Program-made: the position numbers and the translations under genes
Notes under the pieces: generated by a model
Seen by the model: only the letters and a program-made list of their open reading frames with translations
Told to the model about the DNA's origin: nothing
The model's database searches: none
Origin: Polyangiales bacterium
Lineage (GTDB): Bacteria; Myxococcota_A; Polyangia; Polyangiales; Ga0077539
Direction of reading: 5' to 3'
Length of the DNA: 64,000 nucleotides
Assembly (NCBI GenBank): GCA_046351555.1
Contig: JAXLYI010000006.1
Location: forward strand, 58,284 to 122,283
Shown: positions 59,360-63,465 of the stretch, piece by piece
Position numbering within the stretch: the stretch's first letter is position 1
Layout: each line of letters begins with the position of its first letter

Positions 59360-60006
59360 GGCGACGGCGACGGTTCGAGCGCCGCGCCGACGCCCTCGAT
59401 GCGCCCCATGAGCTCGCCGAGGAGCTCGCCGAGGCCGTCGCCCTGCGGCGTCTCGGCGAAGCGGAGCACCGTCACCTGCATCCGCAGCCGCGCGCACAGC
59501 CCGAGGAGCTCGTCGCGCTCGCGCGCCGCCCGCTCGCGCATCGCCTGGAGCCGCCGCGCGCCCTCCATCGCCGCCGCCGCGGCCTCCGCCGCGCCCCGGT
59601 CGCCGCGCGCCAGGCGCTCCGCCCGCGCCGGGTCGAACTCCTCCCCCGCGAGCACCTGGTCGAGCTCGTGGACGCGCGCGTCGAGCCCCGCCACGTGCTC
59701 GGTGAGCCGACGGAGCTGCGCGTCGGTGGGAAGCAGCGGCGCGAGCGTCGGGTGCGCGAGGCGACGTCGCGTCGCGGCGAGCGCCTCGGCGAGCAGCTCG
59801 CACTCGCGGACCACGCGCGCGCTGGCGGCGCGGGGCGCGGCGGAGGGCTCGCGCTCGCCCGGGGCCGCGAGGAGCAGCGGCACGTAGAGCGGCCAGAGCG
59901 TGAAGGTGAGCAGCGCGTCGGCGAGCGAGGGCCGGCGCGCGTGGAGGGCCCAGGCGCACCCGACGCCCACGACGAGGTACGCCACGGCGAGGTCGAGGAG
60001 CCTCAC
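59347..60006 (-). CDS. membrane-anchored coiled-coil protein, function unknown (third gene of a three-gene overlapping operon)
   Basis: The GTG start overlaps the upstream stop (GTGA). One N-terminal TM helix is followed by a helical domain. Confidence 0.4.
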   Translation of the reverse strand: MRLLDLAVAYLVVGVGCAWALHARRPSLADALLTFTLWPLYVPLLLAAPGEREPSAAPRAASARVVRECELLAEALAATRRRLAHPTLAPLLPTDAQLRRLTEHVAGLDARVHELDQVLAGEEFDPARAERLARGDRGAAEAAAAAMEGARRLQAMRERAARERDELLGLCARLRMQVTVLRFAETPQGDGLGELLGELMGRIEGVGAALEPSPSPQVR

Positions 60007-60839
60007 GGCTCGCCCCCCTCGTCGCCCTCGTTGCCGTTCCGAACGTCGGCCGCGCGACGCCCCGAGTACAGCACCGCCGAGCGCGCGGTGGTGGCGACGG
60101 CGGCGAGGAAGTCTCCCTCCAGCGCGCGGACGAAGGGGACGTGCTCGGTGCGCGGGCGCACGACGTAGGGCCGGAGGATCCACGACGTCTGCGCGCCCAC
60201 CAGCGCGAAGAGGGCGACGACGGCGAGGCCGACGCGCGCGCCGCCTTCGCCCGCGCGGGCGAGGCCGCGGAAGGTGAGGCGGGCCGCGGCGACGCCGGCC
60301 ACCGCGCACACCGCGACGACGGCGAGGATCACCCGGTGGTAGCCCATCGACCACCCCTGCGAGAGCCACACGACCGGCGCGAGCCCGAGGAGCACCAGCG
60401 CGAAGCGCGCGCACGAGGCGAGCGAGAGGGCGACGACGCGGCGGGCGCCGAGCGAGAGGTCCGCGGCGCGCGCGAGGGCGACGAAGGCCGGCGTGCACAC
60501 CACCAGCGTGACGCCGAGCAGGAGCGGCACCTTGAGGGCGCACCAGACCACCTGGAGGCCGCCGCGGTGCGCGCCCACCACGGCCCCGAACGCGCCCGCG
60601 CCGACCGCGACGGCGGCGAGGAGCACGCGCGCGAGGCCCGCGGCGGAGGCCGGGTCGGCGAGGGCCTCGTCGGAGGCCGCGAGGAAGCCCGCCGGGTCGC
60701 GCATGAGGAGCTCGAGGCGGCCGATGGGGCCGTCACCCACGGGCGCCACATCGGCGGCCTCCGCGGGGGCGGCGGGGGGCTGGGAGGCCGCGGGCGCAGC
60801 GGCGGGGAGCGAGGGGAACAGGGAGGCTTCCGTGGTCAT
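60003..60839 (-). CDS. polytopic membrane protein, function unknown (second gene of the operon)
   Basis: 278 aa from MTTEASLFPSLPAA with 5 to 6 TM helices. It overlaps the upstream gene by 4 bp. Confidence 0.45.
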   Translation of the reverse strand: MTTEASLFPSLPAAAPAASQPPAAPAEAADVAPVGDGPIGRLELLMRDPAGFLAASDEALADPASAAGLARVLLAAVAVGAGAFGAVVGAHRGGLQVVWCALKVPLLLGVTLVVCTPAFVALARAADLSLGARRVVALSLASCARFALVLLGLAPVVWLSQGWSMGYHRVILAVVAVCAVAGVAAARLTFRGLARAGEGGARVGLAVVALFALVGAQTSWILRPYVVRPRTEHVPFVRALEGDFLAAVATTARSAVLYSGRRAADVRNGNEGDEGGEP

Positions 60840-61339
60840 CGGGTCACCGTGTGGGCGAGGGCGAGGAGGGTGCGGGCGCCGAGCGCGAGGGCGAGGAGCG
60901 TCCAGCCGACGGCGGCGGGGCTGGGCCGCGGGAAGGCGTTGCGGGCCACCGCGCGCACCGCCGCGACGCCGACCAGCACCACCGCGCCGGCCAGCAGGAA
61001 CCACGCGGACCCCGTGCGCAGCGTGGCGGAGAAGTAGGCCGCGGGCGCGGCGAGGCCGAGGAGCACGGTGCCGACGCCGCCGAGGGAGTCGGCGACGTGG
61101 CGGGCGACGCGCTCGGCGGGCAGGCGCTGCCCCGACCAGACGCCGACGAGGTAGAGCGGCGGCGTGGCGAGCAGGGCGCTCCCGACGAAGAGGGCGGGGG
61201 CCATCCAGAGGCCGTGGAGCATGGCGCGGGCGCCGTGGCCGACGGCGGCGGCGAGCCCGAAGGCGGCCGAGCCGGCGAGGCCGAGGGCGAGGCTCCGCGG
61301 GATGGACGCCGCGGCAAAAGGGGTGGACAGGGCGGTCAT
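60836..61339 (-). CDS. polytopic membrane protein, function unknown (first gene of the operon)
   Basis: 167 aa from MTALSTPFAAASIPRSLALGLAGSAAFGLAAAV with 4 TM helices. Confidence 0.4.
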   Translation of the reverse strand: MTALSTPFAAASIPRSLALGLAGSAAFGLAAAVGHGARAMLHGLWMAPALFVGSALLATPPLYLVGVWSGQRLPAERVARHVADSLGGVGTVLLGLAAPAAYFSATLRTGSAWFLLAGAVVLVGVAAVRAVARNAFPRPSPAAVGWTLLALALGARTLLALAHTVTR

Positions 61340-61526
61340 GGGTGGGCGACTCCTCCGCGCAGGCGAGAGCCGTCTCGCCCGCTGCACCCGGAGGTATGAA
61401 GGAGCGATGTGGACGTCCCGCGGTACGCCCGGAGGAGCTTCCCGGGAGGAAATGTGGCGGTCCCGTGGCGGTCCCCGCGTCGCCGACAATTCGCGCCCGG
61501 CCTCGCTCTATGATACCCGCCGTCCC

Positions 61527-62543
61527 ATGCGACGCACGGTGTGGACCACCCTCGGCATGACGGCGCTCCTCGGCACGGCCTGGGCGCAGAACCAACCGCT
61601 CCCGCGCGACGGGGTGCTCCAGGCCAACGTCGGGCGCGTCCGCCTCCAGGCGCCCGCCCCCACGGCCGGCGCGCAGGGGACGGCGCAGGCCCCGACCGCG
61701 CGCCCCTCCGGGCGGATGTTCGGCGGCGTGAGCGAAGACCGTATTCTCGAGGCGATCCGCACGGCCCACATTGACGGTCGCCACAACGTCGGGAGCACGA
61801 GCGTCAACTTCCACCTGGTGCTCTCTGGCGGCATCGACGCGGCGTGGAAGCCCTGCTACGTCGACCACTGCGAGCGCTACCGGGCGGAGATCGCGGCCTA
61901 CCGGCTCAACCGCCTGCTCGGGCTCACGCGCGTGCCGCCGGCCGTCTCGCGCGTGGTGTCGCGGGGCTCACTGCGCCTCGCGCGCCCGACCACCATCCCG
62001 ATCGTGTTCGACCGAGCCGACGAGGCGCGCGGCGCGGCGATCTACTGGGTGCCCGTGATGCGCGACTCCGGGATCGACCGCGAGCGCGACATCGAGCGCT
62101 GGACGCGCTGGCTGCACCAGGGCGGCGACATCCCGGCCGACCAGTCGACGCGCGCGGAGGAGGTGTCGACGCTGCTCGCGTTCGATTTCCTCACCGGCAA
62201 CTGGGATCGCTGGAGCGGCTCGAACGTCCCGATGGACCCGGGCGGCCACCTCGTCTACCGCGACAACAACGGCGGCTTCGAGGAGCCCTTCGTCGAGGGC
62301 CTCATGCGCCGCTCGATGCAGTGGCTGCGGCACACGGAGAAGTTCAAGCGCTCGGTGATCGACCGGGCCCGCGGGCTCACCGAGGCGTCCGTCCGCGCGG
62401 AGATGGCGCTCGACCCCGACCGCGCCCACCCCCCGCTCACCGACCCGCAGATCCGCTCGCTCCTGCGCCGCCGCGACGCGCTGGTTCAGTACGTGGATGG
62501 GCTCGTCGCCCGCCACGGCGCGCGCAACGTCTACGTGTGGTGA
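61527..62543 (+). CDS. secreted Fam20C-like (Golgi casein kinase-like) atypical kinase-fold protein
   Basis: The signal peptide is MRRTVWTTLGMTALLGTAWAQ. Fam20-type signatures are LLAFDFLTGNWDRW (cf. LIGNMDRHHYE) and HLVYRDNNGGF (cf. DNGRGFG). Confidence 0.5.
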   Translation: MRRTVWTTLGMTALLGTAWAQNQPLPRDGVLQANVGRVRLQAPAPTAGAQGTAQAPTARPSGRMFGGVSEDRILEAIRTAHIDGRHNVGSTSVNFHLVLSGGIDAAWKPCYVDHCERYRAEIAAYRLNRLLGLTRVPPAVSRVVSRGSLRLARPTTIPIVFDRADEARGAAIYWVPVMRDSGIDRERDIERWTRWLHQGGDIPADQSTRAEEVSTLLAFDFLTGNWDRWSGSNVPMDPGGHLVYRDNNGGFEEPFVEGLMRRSMQWLRHTEKFKRSVIDRARGLTEASVRAEMALDPDRAHPPLTDPQIRSLLRRRDALVQYVDGLVARHGARNVYVW

Positions 62544-62556
62544 TACTGTCGAGCGC

Positions 62557-63465
62557 GTGAGCCCCGCGCGCCCGCTCGCCCTCGCCCTCGCCCTCGCCGC
62601 CTGCAGCGACCCGCCGGGGCGCCCCCGCCCCAACCCCACGGCCGACGTCCCGCGCGCCGACGTCGCGGCCGACGCAGCACCCGACGACGTCACGGCAGAC
62701 GCAGCGCCCGACGACGTCACCGCCGACGCTGTCACGGCCGACGCCGCCAATGACGCGCCCTCCGATGCGGCGCCCGACGTCGCCACGGCGCGGCTCCGCG
62801 TGCTCTTCGTGGGCAACAGCTACACGTACTACAACGACCTCCCGATGATCGTGTCGCGCATCGGCGACGCGGCGGCGCGGGCAGGCCGCGGCCCGTCGAT
62901 CGAGAGCGCGTCGGTGGCGGTGGGCGGCGCGACGATCCGCAACCACTGGGACACCGGCGACGCCCCGCGGCGCATCATGAGCGAGTCGTGGGACGCGGTG
63001 GTGCTCCAGGGGCAGAGCGTCGAGCCCGCGCTCAACTTCACGGAGTTCCGCACCTACGGCGTCCGCTTCGGGATGCTGGCCAACACGTACCGCGCGCGGC
63101 CGGTGTACTACGCGACGTGGCCGCGGCGCGCGGGCGACGCGGTGTACATGGAGTCGTGGTCGGGCGGGACGCCGGAGGCGTTCAACGGGCGGCTCCACAC
63201 GGCCTACAGCCAGGTGGCGGCGCAGGTGATGGGCGCGGTGGCGCCGGTGGGAAACGTGTGGATGGCGGCCCTCGCCGCGCGCCCGTCGGTGACGCTCTAC
63301 GACGCCGACGGGAGCCACCCCTCGCCGTCGGGCTCGTGGCTCGCGGCCTGCGTGCTCTACCGCGCGCTGGCGGGCGTCGCCGCGCCGCCGGAGAGCGACG
63401 GGGCGGCGACGGGCGTGGCACCCGCGGACGCGCGCGCGCTGCGCGAGCTCGCGTCGGCGCCGTGA
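62557..63465 (+). CDS. lipoprotein with SGNH/GDSL-hydrolase-like fold (putative)
   Basis: The GTG start gives a lipobox LALALALAACS. The tether is ADAAPDDVT x2, encoded by a 27-bp tandem repeat. A GDSL-like block reads LRVLFVGNSYTYYNDLP. Confidence 0.45.
   Translation: MSPARPLALALALAACSDPPGRPRPNPTADVPRADVAADAAPDDVTADAAPDDVTADAVTADAANDAPSDAAPDVATARLRVLFVGNSYTYYNDLPMIVSRIGDAAARAGRGPSIESASVAVGGATIRNHWDTGDAPRRIMSESWDAVVLQGQSVEPALNFTEFRTYGVRFGMLANTYRARPVYYATWPRRAGDAVYMESWSGGTPEAFNGRLHTAYSQVAAQVMGAVAPVGNVWMAALAARPSVTLYDADGSHPSPSGSWLAACVLYRALAGVAAPPESDGAATGVAPADARALRELASAP

Follow-up and report, generated by a model that had tools for sequence, protein, structure and literature searches.

A Fam20-like kinase homologue with a predicted signal peptide in an uncultured myxobacterium

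Do bacteria possess a counterpart of the secretory-pathway kinases of the Fam20 family, which have been regarded as animal proteins? The question is raised by a gene encoding a protein of 338 amino acids, located close to one end of a 64-kb stretch of DNA (the whole stretch analysed, hereafter the window) from an uncultured myxobacterium (Polyangiales). The animal Fam20 kinases (Pfam family PF06702) are the Golgi casein kinase Fam20C, the xylosylkinase Fam20B and the pseudokinase Fam20A. A preliminary description of the locus, made from the letters of the DNA, had recognized in the product of the gene a bacterial homologue of these atypical kinases carrying a cleavable signal peptide. The homology has been borne out by phmmer, profile, hhalign and Foldseek comparisons, and cleavage of the N-terminus is predicted from the sequence. 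What is new here is a bacterial, minimal and disulfide-free form of the Fam20-type kinase.

Comparison by phmmer of the single protein sequence to those of the Protein Data Bank (PDB) retrieved FAM20A (E 3e-11), a hydra Fam20B-like xylosylkinase (6e-9) and FAM20C (1e-7). A family profile was derived from an alignment (A1) taking in 42 members of diverse sequence; in the same set of PDB sequences it matched FAM20C (E 4e-19), FAM20A (3e-18), hydra Fam20 (2e-17) and Caenorhabditis elegans Fam20 (7e-11), and no kinase outside the Fam20 group had E < 1. The match to hydra Fam20 is one continuous stretch, spanning profile positions 93-310. By hhalign, residues 70-336 were aligned over 263 columns to residues 246-570 of vertebrate FAM20C (probability 97.1%, E 6e-11). 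An AlphaFold2 model, also built on alignment A1, scored 88 in predicted local distance difference test (pLDDT) and 0.82 in predicted template modelling (pTM), and when it was searched by Foldseek against the PDB the top 28 matches were all Fam20 structures (E 2e-13). The fold is that of Fam20-type atypical kinases, and among solved structures none of another fold comes as near to the model as those of Fam20. Sequence identity is 21-25% to Fam20 proteins, versus 15% to type II phosphatidylinositol 4-kinases (PI4KII). The bacterial protein is a true homologue of Fam20 kinases, from which CotH, the kinase of the Bacillus spore coat, is much more remote.

The relationship escapes routine annotation. 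The Pfam search suggested as a check in the preliminary description turned out negative for the query alone: no PF06702 match was obtained even at E <= 10, the gathering score not being reached, and the homology became clear only with PDB sequences, profiles and structure. The sole Pfam model touched by the query is FAM198/GASK1, below threshold (E 0.005, residues 115-161), and NCBIfam and PADLOC searches with the query gave no match. Among the members of alignment A1, PF06702 is matched at E < 0.01 by 16 of 42 (best 2.4e-7), and FAM198 by 24 of 42. Precomputed PF06702 or PF15051 matches are already attached to a few family members, the PF06702 match of one homologue (P0117) being marked as weak. 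The Fam20 resemblance is thus latent in the databases, yet undescribed.

Residues were mapped onto Fam20C through the profile-search and hhalign alignments, and are numbered according to a 584-amino-acid database sequence, whose residues 223-570 we take to be identical to the kinase region of human FAM20C. The two blocks singled out at the outset as diagnostic, LLAFDFLTGNWDRW (residues 216-229, nucleotides 62172-62213) and HLVYRDNNGGF (residues 241-251, nucleotides 62247-62279), align exactly with the catalytic loop GNMD458RHHYE and with the metal-binding segment LD478NGRGF of Fam20C, respectively. Five of the six key active-site residues of Fam20C are retained (K108, E116, E121, D227 and D246); the expected correspondence of catalytic and metal-binding residues holds for these, and fails at Lys271, which is replaced by Asn94. 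In Fam20C, K271 binds the phosphates of adenosine triphosphate (ATP), and D478 is the metal-binding Asp (PMC5413348). E121 is invariant in alignment A1, and within the close subfamily position 116 is always acidic (E or D). The corresponding Glu306 position hosts a Gln in Fam20A, which helps make it a pseudokinase (PMC5413348, PMC5865150), and an Asp at this position is also functional in hydra Fam20 (PMC5865150). Asn233, within the DRWSGxN segment, never varies in alignment A1 and sets the bacterial family apart; of the 273 long members, 254 carry the motif NxDRxxGxN. Judging from the sequence, the catalytic machinery looks live apart from one missing lysine.

Likeness to the animal enzymes extends to the beta3 Lys, both Glu residues of the ERxxxAEIAAF segment, the VPPxxxR segment, the catalytic loop (GNxDR) and the block that binds the metal (DN(x)GF). 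The animal proteins are directed by an N-terminal signal to the non-cytoplasmic side of a membrane, and the predicted signal peptide of the bacterial protein may do likewise. In turn, the bacterial kinase domain is shorter by ~58 residues, lacking the insertions of Fam20 proteins, the Cys-rich one included, and has DNNG in place of the DNGR or DNAK of Fam20. It is also devoid of the four Fam20 disulfides, whose pattern is known (PMC5865150): none of the FAM20C cysteines C362, C367, C371, C378, C426, C500, C501 and C560 is aligned with a Cys, and the only cysteines present, C110 and C115, are not conserved. The bacterial protein is equidistant from the Fam20B-like and the Fam20C-like branches. 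GASK1/FAM198 (PF15051), a Golgi-associated, Fam20-related group, matches at sub-threshold level over the short AEIAAF...RVPP segment which is common to both. More remote relatives are easily told apart. CotH (PF08757) works in the mother-cell cytoplasm, on spore-coat proteins, and is not known to have a signal peptide. It is 10% identical to the bacterial kinase, and no match is detected at the sequence level. Among bacteria, it is the Fam20C relative dealt with in published work (PMC7821199). Type II phosphatidylinositol 4-kinases and CtkA of Helicobacter pylori are 12-15% identical and gave no sequence matches, PI4KII being in addition a cytosolic lipid kinase. From the HipA toxin kinases, including HipA_2 (PF20613), the bacterial kinase differs by its predicted signal peptide, and it is much closer to Fam20; in Pfam searches the query did not match HipA, and weak HipA_2 matches were found in 5 of 42 relatives.

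The reading frame is well delimited. It opens with the ATG at 61527 and is closed by a TGA at 62541-62543. The G+C content at third codon positions (GC3) is 0.96 within the coding region (61527-62540), versus 0.71 for the interval 61341-61526 read in the same frame. Ratios of nonsynonymous to synonymous substitutions (dN/dS) of 0.17-0.37, calculated against four orthologues, indicate that the gene is under purifying selection. The orthologues likewise start with M-R-R. A longer open reading frame (ORF) of 459 amino acids, beginning at a GTG at 61164, was rejected because GC3 falls upstream of 61527; it overlaps moreover a divergent gene on the minus strand, and extends beyond the MRR start of the orthologues.

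The N-terminus of the protein features MRR, a hydrophobic stretch of 14 residues (or ~14-17), and AWA followed by Q, which is the anatomy of a Sec signal peptide. From this sequence we infer that the signal peptide is cleaved and the protein exported across the inner membrane. A hydrophobic segment precedes the kinase core in 147 of 161 full-length homologues, and is often followed by small residues and then by Q-P. AlphaFold places a helix of low confidence over residues 4-20, and leaves the linker (residues 22-65) disordered, with pLDDT of about 49-64. The length of the linker differs among homologues, and the region is gappy and variable in alignment A1; the layout of N-terminus and low-complexity linker is typical of the whole bacterial family. 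A minority of homologues have N-termini of other types, either lipoprotein-like, with a lipobox-like sequence (18), or resembling twin-arginine (Tat) signals (15), such as LSRRALLSF or VSRRHMLAL (homologues P0079, P0085, P0090, P0092, P0105 and P0109 in alignment A1). The export route may accordingly differ, to judge by these N-termini, between subfamilies of the family.

How widespread are proteins of this type? Bacterial homologues had been described as rare and poorly characterised. The latter is correct, as all relatives are unnamed, and a search for papers dealing with Fam20 homologues in bacteria, or in myxobacteria, gave none within the searchable library. Rarity is not supported, since such proteins are numerous in metagenomes. 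A search with the single sequence retrieved 241 relatives, all unnamed or annotated as 'hypothetical', the few source names being those of Polyangiales, Myxococcales or Deltaproteobacteria metagenome-assembled genomes (MAGs). An exhaustive search with a hidden Markov model (HMM) of 1.84 billion cluster representatives yielded 403 clusters (defined at 50% identity) at E <= 1e-30, a number which rises to 1267 if the threshold is relaxed to E <= 1e-10. The cluster labels of distant family members read 'hypothetical protein', and in one case 'Deltaproteobacteria bacterium'. When one genome per species of the Genome Taxonomy Database (GTDB) was surveyed, a relative was found at 125 loci; statements on taxonomy and neighbourhood refer to the 80 of these 125 loci that were listed. 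All 80 belong to Myxococcota (Polyangiales, Polyangiaceae, Sandaracinaceae, Labilithrix), a few MAGs being labelled only 'Proteobacteria bacterium'. Labilithrix luteola DSM 27648 is the sole cultured strain among them, and the closest locus among the matches listed, 93% identical, is from a Polyangiales MAG obtained from a lake metagenome. Many MAGs host two paralogues of the Fam20-like kinase. The second paralogue group (loci L027-L046) is ~45% identical to the query and has a long Pro-rich linker. According to the reading of ORF sequences, it adjoins a set of ATP-binding cassette (ABC) transporter genes including a GldG-like auxiliary component; directly downstream are a small convergent gene of ~150 amino acids, and then large genes which look like those of sensors or regulators.

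A bacterial subgroup particularly close to animal FAM20C, as expected of a recent transfer, was sought and not found (best score 46 bits, median 26 bits). Together with the equidistance from Fam20B and Fam20C, this argues for a deep divergence rather than a recent transfer. In the literature, FAM20 has been called metazoan (PMC3696010) or 'eukaryotic- or Metazoa-specific' (PMC9758233), and the evolution of Fam20 has been studied in animal genomes only (PMC5865150).

The surroundings of the gene in the window are occupied by housekeeping genes, among which those for ArgJ and histidyl-tRNA synthetase, and two distant family members similarly reside among housekeeping genes. ORFs of the 80 loci and of the window were clustered, and no neighbour conserved family-wide emerged from this set; synteny is limited to close orthologues. 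Two similar-looking multi-pass membrane proteins are encoded divergently upstream (Table 1). The nearer one, which is small, is kept upstream of the kinase at loci L001, L002, L004, L005 and L006, and its sole family match is a weak one to YbhQ (E 0.02). Downstream lies a lipoprotein gene, which adjoins the kinase only at loci L001, L004 and L005. The lipoprotein carries an acidic Ala/Asp/Pro repeat linker (DDVTADAAP occurs twice) and motifs resembling those of SGNH hydrolases (GNSYT ... DGSHP); it has no Pfam match, and is similar to the uncharacterised PDB chain 4s1p (E 2e-16). It was considered as a substrate of the kinase and dropped: orthologues likewise have the acidic repeats in the linker, but a conserved S-x-E-like motif is absent.

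An element of the form GTGGCG-N5-GTGGC is found upstream of the kinase gene. It is invariant across six orthologous upstream regions which are elsewhere 67% identical, and its spacing resembles that of sigma-54 promoters (-24/-12). The sequence is not enriched in the window (3 occurrences found, 1.9 expected). It is possibly a sigma-54-like promoter or the site of a regulator, though this is a guess. A T(A/G)TG(A/G)TA box is located at 61508-61515, ~11 nucleotides (nt) before the ATG of the kinase; no Shine-Dalgarno sequence was found ahead of this ATG, and scans for sigma-70 promoters and intrinsic terminators found none. The window has a G+C content of ~75% overall, uniformly 72-79%. Over its entire 64 kb, ARAGORN found no tRNA gene, and no Rfam family matched at gathering score.

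Table 1. Positions in the window of the kinase gene, of its main segments and residues, and of neighbouring features
Feature	Position	Strand	Basis or remark
Fam20-like kinase coding sequence, complete	61527..62543	+	ORF and translation, GC3, dN/dS, homologues; 338 amino acids + TGA
Predicted Sec-type signal peptide, residues 1-21 (MRR / TVWTTLGMTALLGT / AWA, then Q22)	61527..61589	+	sequence reading, homologues
Pro/Ala/Gln-rich low-complexity linker, residues 22-65	61590..61721	+	pLDDT, gappy alignment A1
Fam20-like kinase domain, residues 66-338	61722..62540	+	
Asn94, aligned with Fam20C Lys271 (lysine of the Gly-rich loop, ATP phosphates); not conserved	61806..61808	+	alignments
Lys108 (WKP) = Fam20C Lys285, beta3 Lys	61848..61850	+	alignments; conserved in at least 90% of A1
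Glu116-Glu121 (CERYRAE) = Fam20C Glu306 and Glu311 (C. elegans Fam20, ceFam20, Glu213 and Glu218)	61872..61889	+	alignments
Catalytic loop D227-R-W-S-G-S-N233; Asp227 = Fam20C Asp458, catalytic base	62205..62225	+	invariant columns in A1, alignments
Asp246 (RDNNGGF) = Fam20C Asp478, DFG-like metal-binding Asp	62262..62264	+	invariant in A1, alignments
Divergent multi-pass membrane-protein ORFs, two, similar-looking	60836-61339 and about 60003-60960	-	
Lipoprotein gene	62557-63465	+	GTG start 13 nt past kinase stop, lipobox LAAC
Conserved upstream element GTGGCG-N5-GTGGC	61454..61469	+	58 nt before ATG

What could such a protein do? On the strength of its sequence features, we hold with moderate confidence that it is a Sec-exported, catalytically active phosphotransferase, working by the Fam20 catalytic mechanism. 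The pre-protein would begin with the Sec-type signal peptide (1-21), which would lead it across the inner membrane; the disordered linker (22-65) would come next, and then the kinase domain, compact, poor in cysteines and ~270 residues long. After export, ATP and a divalent metal would be bound through Lys108, Glu116/Glu121, Asp246 and probably Asn233, and with Asp227 acting as catalytic base the gamma-phosphate would be moved to a hydroxyl of an extracytoplasmic substrate. Proteins are the class of substrate that we favour, with some hesitation and by analogy, because the nearer bacterial structural relatives (CtkA, CotH and HipA) are all protein kinases. Preferred targets would be Ser/Thr residues in proteins of the envelope, of a secreted matrix, or of lysed or invaded prey. 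Envelope, prey or host targets had been envisaged also in the preliminary description; any such assignment must be taken as less certain than that of the protein to the kinases. More tentatively still, the protein may be the Polyangiales counterpart of the animal secretory-pathway kinases, exported by Sec and phosphorylating proteins or glycans outside the cytoplasm, and representative of a large, old, insertion-free and disulfide-free family which might be a sister group, among prokaryotes, to metazoan Fam20, Four-jointed and GASK1, or might even have given rise to them by gene transfer; in this full form the proposal is doubtful.

Several observations weigh against an active exported kinase, or blur its role. 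ATP is generally considered to be absent from the periplasm, and an exported kinase therefore needs an unusual source of it; extracellular ATP set free by the lysis of prey, or the cytoplasm of a different cell, would be candidates. The column of Fam20C Lys271 contains N, V or S in the bacterial family, and Lys nowhere; when this residue of Fam20C is mutated (K271A), ATP is no longer bound and kinase activity is strongly reduced (PMC5413348). Residues contacting the substrate in Fam20B and Fam20C are changed as well, DRH into DRW and DNxK/R into DNNG, such that His301 and Lys321, which touch the substrate in Fam20B, correspond to Trp229 and Gly249, and specificity is therefore not transferable from the animal enzymes, among which Fam20C-type protein kinases phosphorylate Ser in S-x-E/pS motifs in a Mn2+-dependent manner. 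The genomic context gives no pointer to the substrate either, since no neighbour is shared by the whole family.

Some of these observations fit other functions. As basal animal Fam20s are sugar kinases (PMC5865150), an exported, Fam20B-like kinase of glycans or small molecules, modifying a sugar of an exopolysaccharide, lipopolysaccharide, glycoprotein or prey glycan, deserves attention; it seems rather unlikely, since the two substitutions just mentioned imply that the Gal-Xyl (galactose-xylose) pocket of Fam20B is not retained, glycan-synthesis genes are not conserved beside the kinase gene, and ATP would be no easier to obtain than in the case of a protein kinase. The family-wide loss of the Gly-loop lysine, needed for ATP binding, would suit a pseudokinase, or a kinase fold devoted to other chemistry such as AMPylation or glutamylation, serving for binding or scaffolding outside the cytoplasm, where ATP is scarce. 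Fam20A offers a precedent inside the Fam20 family, SelO is known to AMPylate (bioRxiv 10.1101/2020.02.18.954925), and SidJ, according to a title cited in PMC7948968, is a bacterial pseudokinase which polyglutamylates. We regard this as improbable, because the residues lost in Fam20A are present here, the Glu306 equivalent being E116, and catalytic Asp, metal-binding Asp and beta3 Lys are invariant, or nearly so, over a very diverse family, as one would expect if the phosphotransferase is active.

Two further schemes deserve little credit. The protein might be a lipid kinase similar to PI4K-II or MavQ, with lipids in the membranes of the producer or its prey as substrates. Sequence searches gave only Fam20 proteins and no phosphatidylinositol kinase, identity to PI4KII stays below that to Fam20, and no membrane-binding segment is evident besides the signal peptide; this makes such a role very improbable. 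Should the N-terminal hydrophobic segment remain uncleaved, the protein could be an intracellular kinase of the HipA type, either cytoplasmic or anchored to the inner membrane. This is the least credible scheme, since the hydrophobic stretch is short and followed by A-x-A, Gln and a Pro-rich linker, a layout recurring in nearly all full-length homologues, no antitoxin-like (HipB-type) gene was found among the neighbours examined, and Fam20 is clearly the nearer relative. The exported phosphotransferase remains the reading that we favour.

In papers on Fam20 (PMC3696010, PMC9758233, PMC5865150) CotH is the only bacterial relative discussed, and it is far more distant than the bacterial family described here. 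The origin of secretory-pathway kinases becomes testable by phylogeny. Studies of structure and mechanism could make use of the minimal Fam20 domain, free of disulfides and insertions, which should lend itself to expression in bacteria. The question is raised whether a Gram-negative bacterium has its proteins or glycans phosphorylated beyond the cytoplasm, with what source of ATP, and possibly in connection with predation. If inactive or cytoplasmic, the kinase would still be a useful evolutionary link; if exported and active, it would reveal a bacterial system for phosphorylation outside the cytoplasm, and bear on the origin of Fam20 kinases.
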